From the IMG/VR virus record IMGVR_UViG_3300045988_175595, positions 101,597-165,596 of that record: 64,000 bases of DNA. One strand, written 5' to 3'. This document shows positions 7,261-53,981 of the stretch, one piece after another. The notes beneath the pieces are model-generated. The model was not told the origin of the DNA and did no database searches. It saw nothing but the letters and a program-made list of their open reading frames with translations. Within the stretch, counting starts at the first letter, position 1, and each line of letters starts with the position of its first letter. The position numbers and the translations under genes are program-made. Source of the stretch: a virus.

Positions 7261-8382
7261 TTAATTTGCTTTAAAATTATAAATTGGTTTAATTATTTTT
7301 ACAATATCAACTGTATCTTTAATATTGTTTATAATTTCTTCTGAAGGTTTATATGCACCTTTAGATTCGTCTATTGTTGCATTATTACAAGTTGAACTAA
7401 AAATATTATTTTCTTTCATTGCATTAATATCATCTTCAACTTTTAACAATTCTTTAGCTTTAGAACGGCTCAAGATTCTACCTGCACCATGAGGAGCAGA
7501 ATAATTCCAATCTGGATTTCCTTTTCCTATAGCTATTATGCTACCATCTATTCTATTTAATGGTATTATTACTTTTTCTCCTTTTTTTGCAGATATAGCT
7601 CCTTTTCTTAATATTTTATTAGCTAAATCTATATAGTTATGAATTGTTGTAAAATGACTTTCTTCTTCCCAATTCATTTTATTGATTATAGTATCTGCAA
7701 TAGCCTCTCTATTAAATTGAGCATAAGCTTGTGCTATACCCATATCGTAAAGATAATTTTTTAAATTATCTCCTTGTAAATAGCATAAGGCTTTTGGAAC
7801 TTTATTTATTTTCGGATCATCATTTATTTCTTTAATAGCTAAATTTTGATAATATTCAGCTATTTGTTTTCCTAAACAACTTGATCCAGAATGTATAACT
7901 AAATATATATTATTTTCTGAATCTTTGTTCATTTCTATAAAATGATTTCCTCTACCTAATACACCTATAGATTTTTTTGCTATGTCTATATTTATATTAG
8001 ATTTACATTTTAATAGAGATAAATCTACATATTTATTATATGGATGTTCTTTATCTCTTATATTGGTTCCGTTAGGGATATATTGTTTTATACATTCATC
8101 TACTTTCTGTAAATCAATGTCCTCTAGTTTTTGTTTTAATTTTACTACAAACATTCCACAACCTATATCACTTCCAACTAAATTAGGAGTAACTTTGTCA
8201 TCGATTGTCATTGTAGTTCCTATTGTACACCCCGCGCCTGCATGTGTGTCTGGCATAATCTTTATAACAGAATTTTTATATGCCTCTTGATTACACAATT
8301 CAATAATTTGTGATATTGCCTCTTGGTCTATATCAAATGTATAAACTAAAGCAGTATTATATTGTCCTTGTAAAGGTATCAT
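7261..8382 (-). CDS. rtcB: RNA 3'-phosphate/5'-OH ligase RtcB (compact 373-aa form)
   Basis: Motifs MPDTHAGAGCTIGTT, GRGNHFIE and HSGS match the RtcB metal- and GTP-binding signatures. Confidence 0.8.
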   Translation of the reverse strand: MIPLQGQYNTALVYTFDIDQEAISQIIELCNQEAYKNSVIKIMPDTHAGAGCTIGTTMTIDDKVTPNLVGSDIGCGMFVVKLKQKLEDIDLQKVDECIKQYIPNGTNIRDKEHPYNKYVDLSLLKCKSNINIDIAKKSIGVLGRGNHFIEMNKDSENNIYLVIHSGSSCLGKQIAEYYQNLAIKEINDDPKINKVPKALCYLQGDNLKNYLYDMGIAQAYAQFNREAIADTIINKMNWEEESHFTTIHNYIDLANKILRKGAISAKKGEKVIIPLNRIDGSIIAIGKGNPDWNYSAPHGAGRILSRSKAKELLKVEDDINAMKENNIFSSTCNNATIDESKGAYKPSEEIINNIKDTVDIVKIIKPIYNFKAN

Positions 8383-8888: not shown

Positions 8889-8977
8889 AAAAAATTTATT
8901 TTTAAATTCAATTAAGTTTATAATCCTTGTTACACTATGAACTTAGATTATTTATATATTATTTTTTATTAGCTATT

Positions 8978-9016: not shown

Positions 9017-9168
9017 ATATAAAACCTATAAAGTAATTTTAATTATTTTCATTATTGTCTAAAAAATCTTGATATTTTATTTTTAATTTATCAATATCAA
9101 AATTTTCTAATATATTTATCATTGTGTCAATTTCTTTTTCTTCTTGATGCAAAAATAATTCTATTATA

Positions 9169-9531: not shown

Positions 9532-9890
9532 TTTTGTCTCCTATTTTGCCAAGTTCTAAAATTTTGGATTTTAGATAATAAATCTTTTGCTTTTCCATCA
9601 AAACAAATAGTTCTATCATCAATATTTAATAAAGCTGGCTGTTTTTCTTTACAAACATTATCAACAACTATATTATATTTATCTAGCCATTGTTTAATAG
9701 CTTGTATACCTTCTTCTGTAGAACATCTTGAAGATACAATTACTACAGAATAGCCTGCATTTCTTATTTCTTCTATTGCTTCTTGTATACCTTCTACTGG
9801 CGGATCAGGTATATTTGTAATTCCCTTCCAACCAGAAGTATAACTATGAATAACTCCATCAAAGTCAAATTGAATTATTTTTTGTGCCAT
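9528..9890 (-). CDS. Small HAD-superfamily hydrolase/phosphatase
   Basis: HAD motif I FDFDGVIHSY near the N-terminus. It overlaps the upstream ORF by 4 nt. Confidence 0.5.
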   Translation of the reverse strand: MAQKIIQFDFDGVIHSYTSGWKGITNIPDPPVEGIQEAIEEIRNAGYSVVIVSSRCSTEEGIQAIKQWLDKYNIVVDNVCKEKQPALLNIDDRTICFDGKAKDLLSKIQNFRTWQNRRQK

Positions 9891-10139: not shown

Positions 10140-10292
10140 TGAAAACTTATAAAAAGTTATAAAATAAACTTTTACGTTTCATTCTTGATTCAACGTGACC
10201 TATTTCACTATATAAGCTACTCTAGTTTGGTATATCACTCCACAAGCGTAAATTCCCGACTAACTATCGGTACATATCTATAATTGCTTTCA
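10140..10292 (-). ncRNA. Candidate TnpB-associated omega RNA (reRNA) / IS right end
   Basis: This segment is locally GC-richer than its surroundings (ttgattcaacgtgacctatttcactatataagctactctagtttggtatatcactccacaagcgtaaattcccgactaactatcggtac). It is placed where TnpB guide RNAs are normally encoded. Confidence 0.4.
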
Positions 10293-11465
10293 TTATGCTA
10301 CATTATAGATTGCTGAATCTTTTAAATTTAATGATGCTTGATAATCTCTATCTATTATATTTCCACATTCTGGACAAATATAAATTCTATCACTAAGTTT
10401 CAAATCTTTTTTAATAGAACCACATTCATGACATAACTTGCTTGAAGGGAAATATCTATCAACAATTCTTAATTCTATATTATTCCATTTACACTTATAT
10501 TCTAATTGTCTGCGAAATTCATATAATTTCTGTTGTTGAATAGCTTTAGATATATGCTTATTTTTTATCATACCACTTATATTTAAATCTTCTATTGTAA
10601 TAAACATTGGTTTTCTGTTTACTATTTCAGAAGTTACTTCATGTAAATAATTATCTCTAATGTTAGTTAGTCTATGATTTAATTTTAAAAGTCTTTTTTC
10701 ACTTTTTACAATATTACTTGTTTTGCAGTAACTATCTCCTTTCTTATTTATTAGATATTTTTTAGATATCTTACGTTGTAACCTACGTTTTCTTTTCTCT
10801 AATTTTCTTATCCTTTGTGTTTTATTTATATTATTATAAATATTTCCATCAGAACATATTGCTAAATCTTTAACACCTAAATCTATTCCTATTCCTTCAT
10901 TTGTAGGTATTTCTATATTATCTTCATATTCAATACCAACACATATAAACCAATTAACTCCGTCATAAACCACATGAGGATTTATATATTTACAATTAGT
11001 AGGTATTTTATTCTTTTCTGATAATTTAACCCAATTTAATTTAGCTTTATTTTTCTTTTTACTTGTTGCAATATTCTCTAATTTAACATGAGTATCAGTA
11101 AATTTAATTTTTATATTATCTACATAAAAACTAGGTCTGTCTAACTTTTTTGATTTAAATTTAGGAAATTTAGATTGTCCTTTAAAGAATCTTTTATAAC
11201 TCATACAAGCATCTTTAATAGCCTGTTTAGTTACATTATTACTTATAGAATATAGCCACTTATATTCTTCTTGTTTTTTTAATTTAGTAAATTCTTTTCT
11301 TAACTCATAGTCAGAAATAAATTTACCACCATTTTTATAATTTTCTTGTTGTCTAGCTATTGTCCAATTATAAGCAAATCTTTTTACTCCACAAAACTGA
11401 AACATCTTTGTCTGTTGTTTATTATTAGGCTTTAACTTAATCTTTAATGTTTTTATCATCCTCAA
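10293..11465 (-). CDS. tnpB: TnpB (IS605 OrfB-family RuvC-like nuclease with C-terminal zinc finger)
   Basis: GIDLGVKDLAICSDG RuvC-I-like motif and CHECGS...CPECG zinc finger. Confidence 0.75.
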   Translation of the reverse strand: MRMIKTLKIKLKPNNKQQTKMFQFCGVKRFAYNWTIARQQENYKNGGKFISDYELRKEFTKLKKQEEYKWLYSISNNVTKQAIKDACMSYKRFFKGQSKFPKFKSKKLDRPSFYVDNIKIKFTDTHVKLENIATSKKKNKAKLNWVKLSEKNKIPTNCKYINPHVVYDGVNWFICVGIEYEDNIEIPTNEGIGIDLGVKDLAICSDGNIYNNINKTQRIRKLEKRKRRLQRKISKKYLINKKGDSYCKTSNIVKSEKRLLKLNHRLTNIRDNYLHEVTSEIVNRKPMFITIEDLNISGMIKNKHISKAIQQQKLYEFRRQLEYKCKWNNIELRIVDRYFPSSKLCHECGSIKKDLKLSDRIYICPECGNIIDRDYQASLNLKDSAIYNVA

Positions 11466-19460: not shown

Positions 19461-20009
19461 CTATTTTTCTAGTTCTTTTATTATTTTTTCTACTATTATA
19501 TCACAACCTTCATCAGTTGGTTCTACAACACTATATTCTATTGCTTTTTCATCTAATAAATTTTTCAATTTATTATCATTTGCAATAGCCTCTTCTACTG
19601 TTTTTTCGTTTCTGCCATTTGGATTAAATTTATGAATTCTTTTTAAATAAAAATTCATATTATTGAATTCATTAAATTTATCAATAACAGTTTGAATAAA
19701 ATGTGGCCTTTGTTGAGGATCGTATAGAGCAGATAAAACAATAGGACTATCTACGATAACAACATTTACTTTATCATATACTCTAAAGATTTTCCATAAT
19801 TGTTTACCATAAATATAATCTTGGCAATTAAAAACAGAACTTCTTCCTTCCCAAACCATATCTTTTACCCATTCTTGGATATTTTCACATTCTATTCCTC
19901 TTTCTTTTAATTTAGCAAATATTTTACTTGCGCAAGTGGATTTTCCTATTCCACTTCCTCCTAATAAATTTACTACTATATGTTTATCTTTATTCATATA
20001 GCTATTCAT
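19461..20009 (-). CDS. P-loop NTPase, putative nucleoside/nucleotide kinase
   Basis: Walker A NLLGGSGIGKST near the N-terminus with a small kinase-sized fold. Confidence 0.5.
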   Translation of the reverse strand: MNSYMNKDKHIVVNLLGGSGIGKSTCASKIFAKLKERGIECENIQEWVKDMVWEGRSSVFNCQDYIYGKQLWKIFRVYDKVNVVIVDSPIVLSALYDPQQRPHFIQTVIDKFNEFNNMNFYLKRIHKFNPNGRNEKTVEEAIANDNKLKNLLDEKAIEYSVVEPTDEGCDIIVEKIIKELEK

Positions 20010-20069: not shown

Positions 20070-20276
20070 TTAATAGCTTATAAATTTAGATTCCATATTT
20101 ATAAAGTCATATTGTGGACCTAACTCAATACATTGAGTAGTATCTTTACATTTAGGACAATATATAGTTTTTATATGTCCTTTTTTCTTCAATCTAACCA
20201 TATTTCTTTGTATAGGAATTAGTTGACCACAACATGTACATTTTAACATAGTCATTGTTGTTTTCATTATTATCAT
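20070..20276 (-). CDS. Small zinc-ribbon protein
   Basis: CTCCGQ...CPKCKD, four Cys in two CxxC pairs. Confidence 0.45.
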   Translation of the reverse strand: MIIMKTTMTMLKCTCCGQLIPIQRNMVRLKKKGHIKTIYCPKCKDTTQCIELGPQYDFINMESKFISY

Positions 20277-20827
20277 TCCTTTTTATTTTTGATTTTTAAA
20301 TATTCTATTCCAAAATATATATTATCTAATGTTATACCTAAAAACATAAATATAAAACTAATAACTAATGGTATATTAATTATTATACATATACTAGATC
20401 CTAATAATGTAGCTATACTTGAATATATTTGTATATCATTATCATATCTATTTCTACTTTCTTTATTACTATATTTAATAGCTTTTAACGTATTTCCTCC
20501 TATTAATATATTTTTACTTATAGCAGAAAATATTAATGTATCTAATATATAAAATCCTATTAAATTATTATATATAGTTGCTATTATTACAGCTATTACA
20601 TATAGTATAGCTTCAGCTATTAAGAAAATAAGATAATAATTAAACAGTATATCTTTATATTTATTCCATAGATGTCCTATAACTATAGTAAATATACATA
20701 TAATCATACTATTAATAGCTATTAACTTATAGTCTATTGCATCCATTATGTGTTTTTGTATACATGGATAAGATATAGAGTAGAATATTGTCGAGAAGAA
20801 TGTTGCTTTTATTAAGTTATCTTTCAT
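20273..20827 (-). CDS. Polytopic membrane protein
   Basis: Multiple hydrophobic segments. Confidence 0.45.
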   Translation of the reverse strand: MKDNLIKATFFSTIFYSISYPCIQKHIMDAIDYKLIAINSMIICIFTIVIGHLWNKYKDILFNYYLIFLIAEAILYVIAVIIATIYNNLIGFYILDTLIFSAISKNILIGGNTLKAIKYSNKESRNRYDNDIQIYSSIATLLGSSICIIINIPLVISFIFMFLGITLDNIYFGIEYLKIKNKKE

Positions 20828-21426
20828 TCATTACTTTCACCATTCTTTCTTATTAATTTATTATTTAATTTTTATACTTTTTTGAATATTAGTCTTGACG
20901 AATGAATATGAGGAAAGATACAGTTTTTGAAGTTGTGGACACATTTTTGGACATAAAAACCCTTAATCGTAAAGACTAAAAGGGTTATGTAAAAACATAC
21001 AGTTTTTGTTTTGAATTGTATCTTTGTTACATCTATATCAGCTATTATAACTTAATTGTATCATTTCTGCCCCTAATACAACGAATTTAATAATTCTTAT
21101 TATAATATTAGCCATCTTCTTTATCGAAGATCAGAACTACCAGCCTCATATTTATTTTAACCTCGTAGGGAGTCTCACCTTGCTATGCACACGAGGGGTT
21201 TATACTTATAGGATATAGTCTATAAGTATAGATTTACCCCTTGCCCTTTGTTGACTTTTTTCACAACGTGGGGAGATAGACACCTTTTACGATAGGTTAT
21301 TTTTATGTGATTATTCCTTCTCAACACAACCTTATAGGATTTTTCGATATTAAATTATTAAAATTACTTATTTTTACTTTAATTTTTATACTTAATTAAT
21401 TAGAGTAAAAAATAGATATTTTTTTA

Positions 21427-21455
21427 TTGACATTGTATTTATTATTTGTTATTAT
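21427..21455 (+). promoter_or_regulatory. Near-consensus sigma70-type promoter on the plus strand (TTGACA-N17-TATTAT)
   Basis: Read directly from the sequence: ttgacattgtatttattatttgttattat. Confidence 0.5.
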
Positions 21456-21459
21456 AAAT

Positions 21460-21586
21460 ACATAAAGGTTAGTTTTATAAAGCAATTTATATTTCTACTT
21501 TACAAAACCTAAAAAACTTAATAAACATTATTTGAGAGTCTTTTATATTTTACTTTTCCACGGCAAGAATATAAAAGACTTTTTTC
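21460..21586 (+). ncRNA. Candidate small RNA between the plus-strand promoter and an intrinsic terminator
   Basis: No ORF is present. A 13-bp stem agtcttttatatt/aatataaaagact with a T6 tract lies at 21537-21586. Confidence 0.3.
21537..21586 (+). terminator. Rho-independent terminator hairpin with U-tract
   Basis: Inverted repeat with loop ttacttttccacggcaag, followed by tttttt. Confidence 0.5.
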
Positions 21587-21864
21587 TTGTATTTAATTTT
21601 ACACTATTTTTTCTTTTTTGTCCATATATATTTAAAATATATATTATTATACCTACAAATCATACTATTTTTATATTAATGAAAGGATGATGTATATGAT
21701 TAAACATTTCAGCTAAATTATTTAATCTTTTTATTAATATGACTTGTAGATATAATATTATATACTTACAAAAACTAACACCCTTAAAAAAAGAAACAAA
21801 TAACGGCCAAATTATTTAAATATTTTATTTAAAGAGTGTTAGTTAAATTATATATTATTATATT

Positions 21865-21900
21865 AATTTCGCTAAATTTGTGTTTAGCGAAATATTTTAT
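21865..21900. terminator. Terminator-like hairpin (11-bp stem atttcgctaaa/tttagcgaaat) just past the stop of the 21904-22089 gene
   Basis: A perfect inverted repeat followed by a T-rich tract on the plus strand. Confidence 0.45.
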
Positions 21901-21903
21901 TAT

Positions 21904-22089
21904 TTAAAATATTAGAATTACTTCTATTATTATTAATAAGAAGCATAAGTAAAATTGAAAAGCTATAAAAGCAAAAAAAGCTATTACGAAACATATTAAT
22001 CCAAAAACTAATCTTAAAGTAAAAGCTATATTCTTTTTTATATATATTGAAAATGCTATTGTTAATAATAATGCTATTAATTCATACAA
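21904..22089 (-). CDS. Small membrane protein
   Basis: 61-aa hydrophobic ORF. Confidence 0.35.
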   Translation of the reverse strand: MYELIALLLTIAFSIYIKKNIAFTLRLVFGLICFVIAFFAFIAFQFYLCFLLIIIEVILIF

Positions 22090-22091
22090 TA

Positions 22092-23201
22092 TTAATATCT
22101 TCTTTCTATTGATTCAGTATCTATAATAAATATAGATATAATACTTATTATAGTTAATATTCCTAATATAACTTTACTAATTTTAGATAATTCAATTTGT
22201 AAATATGAAAAATCAGCAAATTGTTTTCTTTCATATTTATCTTCAATAGATTTTCCTACTAAATCTATTTTCTCAGATAATGAAAGATCTTCTTTTGTCA
22301 TTATATTTTTTACTTCATATTTACAATCTTCTGATTCAGACCAGCTAAATGGATAACTCCAAATAATTTTATTATTATCGTCTGTTCCAAATGTTACTAC
22401 AAAATCATTTTTGTTACCATTTTGCCATAAATCTTGTAATGCTATTCCATAATCTTGTGTAACATTACCAAGATTTACAAAAATAACATTAACTTGTTTA
22501 TATGATTTTACATTATCTATATTATTAGGATTATTTGTATTATTTAAGTATGAGTTTAATTTATTTACTTGATTAATAATATCTTCTTTATCTTCAATAG
22601 TTTCTCCAATATATCTAGTTATACAATAATTTTCTACATTTTTAGGATATTCGGGTAAATTTGGATAAGTATCTAAATTTATATCTGTATGCTTATATAT
22701 TGAATAACTAGCTTGTACTTTATTTTCATAAGTGTGTATACTAGCTGTTGGTCTACCTATTGGATAAAATTCTTCTAATTCTTTATCTGAATTTACAAAA
22801 GAATCAGTAAATATTCTTCCATCTGGAGCTTGTCTAACATAAAAAGTACCATCATCTGTTGTTTTAATATAATTTTCAGCATCATGATGCTCCCAATATC
22901 CAGGATGATGTTTTATTTTTGTATGGACATTACCCTTAGAATCAGTTTCTGTTATTTCTTCATCCCAAGGTTCATGCCATTCGTCCCATTCCTCTTTATG
23001 ATTTACTGAGACGATTTCTCCAGACCATACTTCTTTACATGATGTTTGACATTTATAATCAATAAATACTACAATACTTCCTATTATTAAATTAGCTATT
23101 AATAATATAATAACTAATAATATTTCAACATGTTTACTAACTACATATTTAATAAAACTGGCTAGACATATAAAAAATAGAAAAATAAATAAAGTATTCA
23201 T
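22092..23201 (-). CDS. Membrane-anchored hypothetical protein
   Basis: N-terminal transmembrane segments with a large extracellular domain. Confidence 0.45.
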   Translation of the reverse strand: MNTLFIFLFFICLASFIKYVVSKHVEILLVIILLIANLIIGSIVVFIDYKCQTSCKEVWSGEIVSVNHKEEWDEWHEPWDEEITETDSKGNVHTKIKHHPGYWEHHDAENYIKTTDDGTFYVRQAPDGRIFTDSFVNSDKELEEFYPIGRPTASIHTYENKVQASYSIYKHTDINLDTYPNLPEYPKNVENYCITRYIGETIEDKEDIINQVNKLNSYLNNTNNPNNIDNVKSYKQVNVIFVNLGNVTQDYGIALQDLWQNGNKNDFVVTFGTDDNNKIIWSYPFSWSESEDCKYEVKNIMTKEDLSLSEKIDLVGKSIEDKYERKQFADFSYLQIELSKISKVILGILTIISIISIFIIDTESIERRY

Positions 23202-24804: not shown

Positions 24805-25251
24805 TTAAAAGCAAAATTTATGCACAAAAAATTTACAATCTTCATATAAACTATTTAATCCTTCTTTTGCTACTTGCTCTATAATATCTTTTTGGCTATT
24901 TATTGTGTTTTCTTTAGCAAAACAATCTGTAAATGTATCAAATTTTTTTATATAATTTACTAATTGTTTATTACTTACTAAATAAATATACCATAAATAT
25001 TTATAATATGCAGTTAAATATTTTAAAGAAAATATTTGATTATTAACTTTAAAATCTATTAGTTTATATTCATTCTTGTATTGCCAGTGTTTTGCTTGTT
25101 TAAAATTTTCTGGATGTAAAATTTTTTGATTATACAAAAATTTTTTTAATAATTGATATCTATCTTCTATAGATATATTATTTATTTTTGCATATAAGGC
25201 TGAAAACCTTTTATCTCCCTTACTACTACATTCTAAATTCATAATTGTCAC
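24805..25251 (-). CDS. Hypothetical protein
   Basis: 148-aa ORF. Confidence 0.4.
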   Translation of the reverse strand: MTIMNLECSSKGDKRFSALYAKINNISIEDRYQLLKKFLYNQKILHPENFKQAKHWQYKNEYKLIDFKVNNQIFSLKYLTAYYKYLWYIYLVSNKQLVNYIKKFDTFTDCFAKENTINSQKDIIEQVAKEGLNSLYEDCKFFVHKFCF

Positions 25252-52560: not shown

Positions 52561-52974
52561 ACGCTCGAAAAAATTATTACTTTTTCTTATAAATATTAAA
52601 ACGGGCTCTAGCGACCTATTTAATAATAAAAATAGGCACTCGTGTATACCCACACAATAAGCCATAAATAATATCATACAATTCAAAATAGATGTATTTA
52701 AATAGATAATTAAATATAAAGCGATTTAAGAGAGATAAAAGATATATATGTATAGGGATACAAGGGACGAAATAAAAAACGTATATAATAAAAACTAACG
52801 TTAAAAAAATACTAACGCTAAAAAAGAGATAAGGGCTCGCTAACGCTCGCCCTCGTATGTAAGTTAGTCCGATACTATTTAGGCACTCGTGTATAAACGT
52901 GTCCATAAAAAGACAAGTATTAACTAAACTTAGGAATTAGTATTGAATTGTAAATAGAAAGTTTAAACAAATAA

Positions 52975-53007
52975 CCCGTAATAAGATAGCGATAGCTTTT
53001 TGTTTTT
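52975..53007. promoter_or_regulatory. Copy of promoter-like motif CGTAAT(C/T)AAGATA-N5-8-TTTTTGTT (minus-strand AACAAAAA..TATCTTGATTACG)
   Basis: Plus-strand sequence cccgtaataagatagcgatagctttttgttttt. Confidence 0.35.
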
Positions 53008-53981
53008 AAAAAAAGTTTATATAATAAATAGATAGTTTAGTTTAATACTTGTAAAAATATTAAATAATCTATCTATAATATAAACTTATATTTTTTGTAT
53101 GGAATAAGAGATATATAAAAATAAATATCTAGAATAAATTATATATATCTCTTATGTGGGGTTAATAATGATTAAACACTTTTGCGATGCCCAACTATGT
53201 TCTCTTCGTCTTTTCTGAGATTAAGGGCCCAACCTTATTATATTTTTGGTTATTATATATAATAAGGATTTTTAATTGATTTTAGCATTTTTGACACTCT
53301 TGCCTTATCAATTTATTATTTAAATGTAAGGTTTATTAAATTATTTTTATTCTTTACCTAGGATAGAATAATAATTTAATAATTTCTATCTTGTTTTATT
53401 AACAAATTATTAATCAGATAGATATAAATTAATAATTGTTAAGTGAGTCAACATTCACATCATCTTATACATTTATCACTTACAAATTATATAAGAATTT
53501 AGGAAAAGTATTTATTGGCTACTTCCTTGACCTTTTTAATTTTATTTTTGTGTTATTAAGGTGTTATTAAGCGAAACTGTACATTATATAAAAAGAAAAA
53601 CATTAAAAAGCCAATAAAAAACAAAAGAAAAAATTAGGCAACTAAATTAATTTAAAATTACTATTATGATTTCCTTTGCCTTTCTTAATTTATTTTTTAT
53701 TTAATTTAATATTTTTTTTGGAACTATACAACTAGCTCCTTAAATCATATAAGCTGTTAAAAGTGGTATAGAAACTTACTCTTAATAGCTTATATGATAT
53801 TAGCAACCAATTGATAATAAAAAATAATATATTTATATATAATACTTTAAACCCTCAAGGCAAATCAGTCCTTTTTATATTGAGCTTATATATAATCATT
53901 ATACTAGCTATCTATCGCATAATGAATCACTCCTCTCTTAATTATCAATTAATTTATTTTTGAAAGTGATTTAATAGAAAA

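Follow-up and report, generated by a model that had tools for sequence, protein, structure and literature searches.

The 64,000-nt stretch of viral DNA analysed here, called the window (IMG/VR record IMGVR_UViG_3300045988_175595, positions 101,597 to 165,596), carries a conserved noncoding module of about 460 nt within a long gene-free interval. This element is real, under selection and noncoding, and it is most likely a structured RNA of no described family. It is conserved above the level of coding sequence, holds no open reading frame (ORF) shared between the two lineages in which it occurs, shows compensatory base-pair changes and belongs to no known RNA family. A functional RNA, from one strand or the other, is the probable nature of the element. 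Our preferred reading is a stand-alone noncoding RNA (ncRNA) made from the plus strand, encoded by a small autonomous 'moron-like' gene that occupies an accessory slot in a jumbo phage of gut Firmicute type; it is put forward tentatively, its chance falling somewhat short of even. The first-pass annotation, made from the sequence alone, had noticed a structured, GC-richer segment at 20830-21330 and had offered four candidates for it: a structured ncRNA, a packaging site, a replication origin and a degenerate self-splicing intron. Conservation above coding level, the missing shared ORF and the compensatory pairs favour the first of these, whereas the origin and the intron find no support. The interval proposed there covers most of the feature, but the conserved module actually spans 20895-21357.

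Comparison with related phages, as proposed in that annotation, recovered the module in one other lineage. Related loci were anchored on three flanking proteins (the 369-aa, the 184-aa and the AAA_28 protein), and among the 33 loci obtained nhmmer and a covariance model found the module only in L018 (Logan SRR25948551) and in L054, its 99.5%-identical sibling. Both of them have it in the corresponding gene-free gap (L018 8819-9757), with the relative orientation unchanged. DNA 100% identical to that of the window is also present in a 144-kb gut-metagenome contig from ENA, as well as in short contigs of several gut samples, so that no sequence variation is gained from those copies. The main conserved parts are as follows:

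20828..21903, no strand: gene-free interval, from ORF lists and public gene calls
20895..21357, no strand: conserved noncoding module, equivalent to L018:9245-9690, from blastn, nhmmer and alignment
21011..21073: moderately conserved spacer with two well-kept blocks, TTGAATTGTATCTTTGTTACATCTATATC and TATCATTTCTGCCCC, from the alignment
21128..21159, no strand: invariant 32-nt run AGATCAGAACTACCAGCCTCATATTTATTTTA, identical in all columns and predicted to be mostly unpaired

The module runs from TTGAC at its left edge (20895) to TTCGATATTAAATTA at its right edge (21357). The two copies share 78% identity over 342 nt, and the mean column identity is 84% over an alignment of about 480 nt. Identity reaches 90% at 21125-21340 and 87% in the core (21128-21335, with 26 substitutions in 204 columns), and falls smoothly from the core to 68-70% in the left part. 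Between the same lineages, the surrounding genes are 68-80% identical at the nucleotide level, the flanking proteins are 61% and 73% identical in amino acids, and the right-hand 550 nt or so of the gap (beyond 21360) cannot be aligned. The core is thus the best-conserved stretch in about 16 kb.

This conservation is not that of a protein. The first-pass annotation had described a gene-free interval of about 1 kb, and we confirm that no credible ORF is present at 20828-21903: the gene strand has no ORF of at least 60 aa there, the short ORFs in the gap (up to 52 aa) are not conserved, and, in the public gene calls for the same contig, the 1,264 nt that separate the 369-aa from the 184-aa gene carry no gene. 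Six-frame translation of both copies shows stops in every frame of the core and no frame that is open in both. A 1-nt indel puts the conserved segment TCCTTCTCAAC into one frame in the window and into another in L018. The sharp contrast in composition also holds, with a GC (guanine plus cytosine) fraction of 0.34-0.40 in 100-nt windows over 21100-21349, against 0.15-0.28 in the flanking genes; further right in the gap it is 0.10-0.21.

All of the helices quoted in the first-pass annotation, and the repeated word discussed below, are present in their expected places:

21161-21166 / 21191-21196: CCTCGT/ACGAGG
21195-21199 / 21236-21240: GGGGT/ACCCC, enclosing an AU-rich hairpin
21202-21211 / 21220-21229: arms ATACTTATAG and CTATAAGTAT of this AU-rich hairpin
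20958-20964 / 20980-20986: AACCCTT/AAGGGTT, the quoted 7-bp hairpin

Folding places the second and third of them in a predicted three-way junction flanked by small hairpins:

21158..21299, plus strand: GC-richer three-way-junction domain, from minimum free energy (MFE) folds, consensus folds and the pair table
21158-21172 with 21284-21299, plus strand: P1 of the junction
21194-21241, plus strand: P2, GGGG/CCCC continuing into the AU-rich hairpin
21244-21273, plus strand: P3, CCCT.TGTTG/CAACG.GGGG
21114..21131, no strand: 5' hairpin ATCTTC-TTTATC-GAAGAT (ATCTC-TTTAA-GAGAT in L018, with one matched pair lost)
21306..21328, no strand: 3' hairpin TGTG/CACA (AGGG/CCCT in L018), outside the MFE fold of the window sequence alone
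21330..21344, plus strand: weak hairpin CCT-TAT-AGG followed by TTTTT, unstable on its own (z about 0)

The nesting drawn in the first-pass annotation is kept for GGGG/CCCC and the AU-rich hairpin; CCTCGT/ACGAGG, however, has an equally conserved competitor. The CCTCGT segment can pair either locally with ACGAGG (21161-21196) or, within P1, with ACGA..GG at 21289-21296, and, all three segments being invariant, variation favours neither pairing. The 3' hairpin exposes a 15-nt loop, ATTATTCCTTCTCAA, which is CU-rich on the plus strand and reads GAGAAGGAA on the minus strand. Its L018 counterpart, ATTG-TCCTTCTCAA, has one substitution and a 1-nt deletion at the 5' end, the TCCTTCTCAA part being identical. 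The weak hairpin at 21330-21344, replaced in L018 by CCAG...CTGG followed by ATTTATTC, is a possible, though poor, 3' end for a plus-strand RNA. A long-range pairing of 20951-20973 with 21286-21308 was also considered and rejected, since, as judged by eye, it is not conserved in L018.

The predicted fold is more stable than expected from composition. The plus strand of 21100-21340 folds to -61.2 kcal/mol, compared to -44.4 +/- 4.1 for dinucleotide shuffles (z -4.06, none of 200 shuffles being as good), while the minus strand gives a z of -2.20. With separate shuffles of 21131-21335, the z values are -4.47 on plus and -1.98 on minus.

To avoid circularity, covariation was evaluated on the MFE structure of the window sequence only. 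Three pairs of this structure show compensatory changes in L018, namely 21198/21237 (G-C to A-U), 21251/21266 (U-A to C-G) and 21253/21264 (G-C to A-U). Sliding the structure by 1-3 columns leaves no compensatory pair on the plus strand and 0-2 per slide on the minus strand. When an equal number of substitutions is placed at random (50,000 trials), at least three such pairs arise with P=0.0046 on plus and P=0.0057 on minus; over the longer, partly ill-aligned region 21100-21340 the same test gives P=0.034. Two further double changes fall in the 3' hairpin, at 21306/21328 (U-A to A-U) and 21308/21326 (U-A to G-C), and two hairpins are rebuilt in L018 with different sequence. Compensatory pairs beyond chance, the general mark of a structured RNA, are thus observed, in two lineages only, and they indicate that the pairing is under selection.

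These changes also bear on the idea that the element is a non-functional relic, either exchanged recently between the lineages or decayed from a mobile element, an intron or an omega-RNA, so that its similarity would reflect recency. The plasticity of the locus speaks for such an origin. More distant relatives (40-57% amino acid identity) fill the slot with other cargo or have their genes closely packed there, the element is absent from all of them, and neither nhmmer nor the core covariance model finds a match in these relatives. The slot after the 369-aa gene holds a 487-aa TnpB in L020 (7345-8808) and a 505-aa DUF2828/DUF7788 protein, which is not a TnpB, in L004 (7279-8796); the varied cargo marks the position as a hot spot for accessory insertions. 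An active-looking TnpB/RAGATH-18 unit resides elsewhere in the phage, and a 16-nt direct repeat brackets the module in the window. A relic would nevertheless not be expected to place its double changes on predicted pairs (P about 0.005) or to rebuild hairpins with different sequence. The smooth decay of identity into the left part points to graded constraint rather than to a sharp recombination block, and there is no similarity to the 3' region of the window's TnpB or to Rfam intron, ribozyme and omega-RNA families. A relic is therefore very improbable in our view.

The more specific origins of this kind fare no better. The degenerate self-splicing intron offered in the first-pass annotation lacks both a Rfam intron or ribozyme match at E<=10 and an interrupted gene; in particular, a group I intron or its remnant was rejected in the absence of a split ORF in the flanks and of an Intron_gpI match at E<=10. 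A TnpB/IscB omega-RNA or insertion sequence (IS) remnant had been considered because of the TnpB in the equivalent slot of L020; it was rejected because 20828-21903 contains no tnpB-like ORF or remnant of such a frame, and the core has no similarity to the TnpB/RAGATH-18 locus, whose TnpB (10293-11465) is the only one in the window. Terminal repeats of a mobile element were likewise rejected, as no terminal inverted repeats are present and L018 lacks the bracketing repeat. This repeat is an exact 16-nt direct repeat, TTTAATTTTTATACTT, at 20864-20879 and 21378-21393 (39 nt at 77%). It could be an insertion scar; lacking an L018 counterpart, it is probably a chance occurrence in AT-rich DNA.

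The left part of the module contains signals of a different kind:

20895..20924, plus strand: sigma-70-like promoter match TTGACG-18-TACAGT (9/12)
20918-20929 and 20997-21008, no strand: two exact direct repeats ATACAGTTTTTG, flanking a hairpin
20948..20987, minus strand: left hairpin AACCCTT.../...AAGGGTT with a G-U extension, followed by UUUUUAUG; terminator-like

The L018 counterpart of the promoter match, TTGACT-17-AATACT at 9690..9662, also scores 9/12 and keeps its position at the module edge. The match at 20895-20924 is suggestive only, but if the promoter is real, the plus-strand transcript would start near 20931. The repeated word acagtttttg noted in the first-pass annotation is indeed present, although the true unit is the 12-mer ATACAGTTTTTG. 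No other exact copy occurs in the 64 kb, and a genome-wide promoter motif was rejected for lack of enrichment elsewhere. In L018 both repeats read ATACTTTTAG, at a spacing of 68 nt as compared to 79 nt in the window. The repeats differ between lineages and yet match within each, indicating that the copies change together, and these concerted repeats are the one feature best explained by a protein-binding DNA site.

We considered whether the whole element acts as DNA, as an operator bound by a phage regulator, an origin bound by an initiator or a pac site bound by a packaging protein, with the stretch of 10-20% GC as an unwinding element. Besides the concerted repeats, whose spacing differs by 11 bp or about one helical turn, the 32-nt invariant unpaired block and the adjoining, extremely AT-rich region with strong promoters fit this idea. 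Compensatory changes in GC-rich hairpins, on the other hand, are unexpected for double-stranded binding sites, there are only two repeats, and the rest of the 64 kb makes no use of their motif. The origin proposed in the first-pass annotation does not emerge from the genome layout either: the cumulative GC skew falls monotonically over the 64 kb without inflection, gene orientation does not switch, the repeats are two and short with no iteron array, and no initiator gene is found among the neighbours. As to packaging, the ends of contigs from other samples are scattered (21909, 21872, 21679, 21663, 21580, 21522, 21519, 20932 and 20929) and artefactual. Contigs of the assembly set ERZ2661xxx stop within a few bases of contigs of ERZ9xxxxx, inside genes as well, so these assemblies are not independent samples, and untrimmed Illumina adapter sequence stands at contig ends (L010:1-26, L015:2709-2742 and L017:1-21). 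We rejected these breaks as virion ends, since they most likely stem from the same low-coverage runs assembled twice, some with adapter. We hold a DNA-level site, in place of an RNA, to be improbable.

For an RNA, the evidence on the strand is divided between plus and minus. The composition-corrected stability favours plus, with z values of -4.47 against -1.98 in the window and -1.65 against -0.50 in L018. Seven G-U pairs of the curated plus-strand fold would be A-C mismatches on the minus strand. L018 and L054 differ by five single-nucleotide polymorphisms (SNPs), and two of these place A/G opposite U in P1 and P2, a change that is neutral on plus and a mismatch on minus. Conservation that begins exactly at the -35-like TTGAC in both lineages also favours plus. 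In consensus folds the covariation terms of the two strands are similar, so that no strand is assigned. The gap further contains the following signals to the right of the core:

21427-21455, plus strand: promoter TTGACA-17-TGnTATTAT, 11/12, with an extended -10
21537-21588, plus strand: 13-bp terminator and U tract, some 130 nt beyond this promoter
21624..21596, minus strand: facing promoter TGGACA-17-TAAAAT
21866-21893, plus strand: second terminator, a 12-bp hairpin ATTTCGCTAAA/TTTAGCGAAAT with a U-rich tail

Two canonical plus-strand terminators and a near-consensus plus-strand promoter in the gap make plus-strand transcription plausible in a region where all genes are on the minus strand. 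The second terminator would stop plus-strand transcripts before they enter the 369-aa gene in antisense. The word ATTTCGCTAAAT recurs at the corresponding border of the gap in L018. The trio of promoter, terminator and facing promoter recurs at equivalent places in L018 (9097..9069, about 8930 and 8893-8921), in sequence that cannot be aligned. The arrangement at 21427-21624 suggests convergent, fully overlapping small transcripts, which might form an antisense switch or a second small RNA (sRNA) gene.

The minus strand is the sense strand of all genes, and the serious rival to a plus-strand RNA, though we hold it to be unlikely, is a cis-acting leader RNA of the downstream operon that would start at 21624..21596. 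The core would then govern read-through of the hairpin and U tract at 20987..20948 by attenuation, by riboswitch-like control or by put-like processive antitermination. The operon concerned encodes the 184-aa membrane protein or the 102-aa protein, a Zn-ribbon protein and the NadR-like AAA_28 kinase. Several observations suit a leader. It would have the orientation of every gene in the window, and its upstream promoter, TGGACA-17-TAAAAT/TACAAT, is kept in both lineages inside otherwise unalignable sequence. The left hairpin is terminator-like on the minus strand only: it is rebuilt in L018 as GAATTCTTAGT/ACTAAGGATTC on that copy's plus strand, with wobble pairs that again form only on minus, and folding of the left region of L018 gives z values of -3.35 for the strand in the sense of the genes and +0.22 for its complement. 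The compensatory pairs are equally significant on the minus strand, and conservation extends about 50 nt beyond the hairpin, which is better explained by a leader than by a terminated sRNA.

Against this, distances of 150 nt between core and hairpin, and of 300-470 nt between core and start codon, are long for a riboswitch, and a conserved anti-terminator pairing was not found. In L018, an 11-bp terminator (9109-9135) stands between promoter and core, and the two lineages have different genes in the first position downstream. Homologues of the 184-aa protein in L057, L055 and L056 have no such leader. The minus-strand fold is also the weaker one after composition correction, and no Rfam riboswitch or leader family matches.

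Several points weigh against the plus-strand ncRNA as well. With two independent lineages only, the power of the covariation analysis is low and the fold is not uniquely defined, and the stability of the L018 copy does not significantly exceed that of its shuffles (z -1.65). Three of the five SNPs between L018 and L054 fall in the core, which is unexpected under very strong constraint, the counts being tiny. Promoter matches such as that at 20895-20924 are common in AT-rich DNA (23 found compared to 18.9 expected), and its spacer is conserved as well as its hexamers. No convincing plus-strand terminator follows the core. The wobble pairs and the U tail of the left hairpin are confined to the minus strand in both lineages, and the L018 change T21206C gives a G-U pair on minus and a C-A mismatch on plus. 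Finally, neither a target nor a partner was found, and matches to the complement of the loop occur in the window at chance level. One way to reconcile the two sets of signals is that the core acts as a plus-strand RNA while the left hairpin belongs to transcription of the minus strand, in which case the two transcripts may be antisense partners.

Membership in a known family was addressed with a range of searches. The Rfam/Infernal check proposed in the first-pass annotation returned no known-family match in the gap: Rfam 15 at the gathering threshold reports only tRNAs and RAGATH-18 (10182-10246) in the whole window, the families covered including riboswitches, ribozymes, group I and II introns, ROOL, GOLLD, HEARO, RAGATH, 6S, tmRNA, RNase P and Y RNA. 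At E<=10, three sub-threshold matches to unrelated families appear in 20700-22150 and six other sub-threshold matches in L018:8820-9760, none of them common to both lineages. ARAGORN finds no tRNA or tmRNA in the gap, all 18 tRNAs being at 621-7165. No similar DNA was detected by blastn among GenBank phages and PLSDB plasmids, and exact-pattern scans of IMG/VR gave no match. The same kind of scan of JGI metagenomes gave nine chance matches in unrelated DNA. In GTDB genomes a first scan found none and a second found 20 matches in high-GC organisms, judged to be chance, and nhmmer on these 20 loci yielded no extended match to the module. The supplement of a human-microbiome structured-RNA catalogue (PMC8040213) contains no 12-13-mers of the core in 200 of its 408 files.

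The working model of this element, in which we infer transcription, strand, RNA ends and mode of action, is the following. Within the noncoding module of about 460 nt, the core would work as a folded RNA, transcribed on the plus strand and thus opposite to every neighbouring gene. Transcription might start from the host-type promoter at 20895-20924 and produce an RNA of roughly 375-420 nt, whose 3' two-fifths would form the three-way junction at 21158-21299. The 32-nt invariant single strand would precede the junction, and the small hairpin with the conserved CU-rich loop would follow it. Such an RNA may act through its conserved unpaired segments, by protein binding or by base pairing. A candidate partner is the long, perfectly complementary leader of the minus-strand operon that would be transcribed from the facing promoter at 21624..21596. 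A bolder form of this model is possible but on the doubtful side: the element would be the founder of a new RNA class in a small clade of gut jumbo phages, expressed from a gene of its own in antisense to the surrounding operons, and acting in trans on host or phage machinery through the 32-nt strand and the CU-rich, anti-Shine-Dalgarno-like loop, either as a decoy of a protein or the ribosome or as the antisense partner within a convergent-promoter switch that times the nucleotide/NAD operon.

Compared to known systems, the element resembles the orphan motifs of the GC-IGR/DIMPL type (ROOL, GOLLD) in that a segment of higher GC stands as an island within a long intergenic stretch of AT-rich DNA. 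With ROOL- and GOLLD-type RNAs it shares a multi-helix fold with covarying pairs, conserved unpaired stretches and no ORF, and a location in a phage that has a tRNA array. It differs from them in that no sequence or structure match to ROOL, GOLLD or another Rfam 15 family is seen even at E<=10, the tRNA array is 14 kb away, it comes from two lineages only, and it is much smaller (about 205 nt for the core and about 460 nt for the module). Morons, as known from lambdoid phages, are autonomous units of promoter, gene and terminator inserted between phage genes. The element is similar in occupying a variable slot where relatives hold other cargo, and in its distinct composition, its own promoter-like signal and an orientation independent of the flanking operons. 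Its cargo, by contrast, would be an RNA rather than a protein, the promoter match is modest, the terminator weak and transcription inferred.

Read on the minus strand, the element has the structured RNA, the hairpin with a U tract and the operon that are typical of leader RNAs (riboswitches, attenuators, HK022 put). It departs from them in its long distances, in the lack of a conserved terminator/anti-terminator alternative among the pairings found, and in a first downstream gene that is not conserved, and known aptamers and put/EAR-type families give no match. It is also comparable to the omega-RNAs of TnpB (IS200-IS605, RAGATH-18) as a structured noncoding RNA of 100-200 nt between phage genes, the more so as L020 has tnpB in exactly this slot. 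Unlike in those systems, the gap holds no tnpB or remnant of it, and no similarity to the RAGATH-18 region or to the omega-RNA and HEARO families of Rfam is seen.

Little is known of the jumbo phages of gut Firmicutes, and annotation of their noncoding content is all but lacking. The element makes a clean candidate as a new phage RNA, with a plastic slot, nucleotide- and NAD-related genes nearby and conserved convergent promoters. If expressed, it would offer a tractable entry to RNA-based regulation or host takeover in such phages, and should it prove a leader, it would count as a new cis-regulatory RNA. Its immediate value is modest, owing to a family of two members and the lack of a functional clue.

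The phage genome is large, with 22-30% GC, and all ORFs of at least 300 aa in the window are on the minus strand. Besides 18 tRNA genes, the 64 kb encode an RtcB ligase, a DUF2828/vWA protein, a TnpB with an adjacent RAGATH-18 RNA, and an endolysin with choline-binding repeats. The genes that border the gap are:

20273-20827, minus strand: left neighbour, gene of the 184-aa membrane protein, from the ORF list and public gene calls
21904/22092-23201, minus strand: right neighbour, a 61-aa ORF (without a public call) and the 369-aa phage G gp144-like protein

The 369-aa protein is related to gp144 of Bacillus phage G and also to other jumbo-phage and megaphage proteins. In L018 the gap has a 241-aa gene on one side and genes of 102, 66 and 97 aa, followed by the AAA_28 gene, on the other; the homologue of the 184-aa protein is placed further downstream, so that the immediate neighbours differ between the lineages. 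The operon downstream of the element includes the AAA_28 protein at 19461-20009, named nicotinamide riboside kinase by JGI. Upstream genes, near 24805-25251, include a NADAR-DarT1-like protein and a guanylate kinase, and the relative L019 encodes an Apyc1-like anti-Pycsar domain protein at 465-1646. The surroundings of the locus thus display NAD/nucleotide and anti-defence themes.

Further from the element, a second gene-free gap of about 1.07 kb (52907-53981) contains an 11/12 promoter on the plus strand, TTGACA-17-TATTAT at 53291-53319, and has no homology to the gap studied here. The array of 18 tRNAs (621-7165) lies beside the RtcB RNA ligase gene (7261-8382), with the DUF2828/DUF7788/vWA protein at 1536-3092. 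This set resembles an RNA-repair or Ro-like module, and the Rfam scan detected no Y-RNA-like family. The TnpB of the window (390 aa, 10293-11465, minus strand) has HTH_OrfB_IS605, OrfB_IS605 and Cas12f1-like TNB domains, and the RAGATH-18 RNA (69 bits, 10182-10246, minus strand) lies immediately 3' of it. This pair looks like a TnpB with its right-end or omega-type RNA, resident in a jumbo phage.

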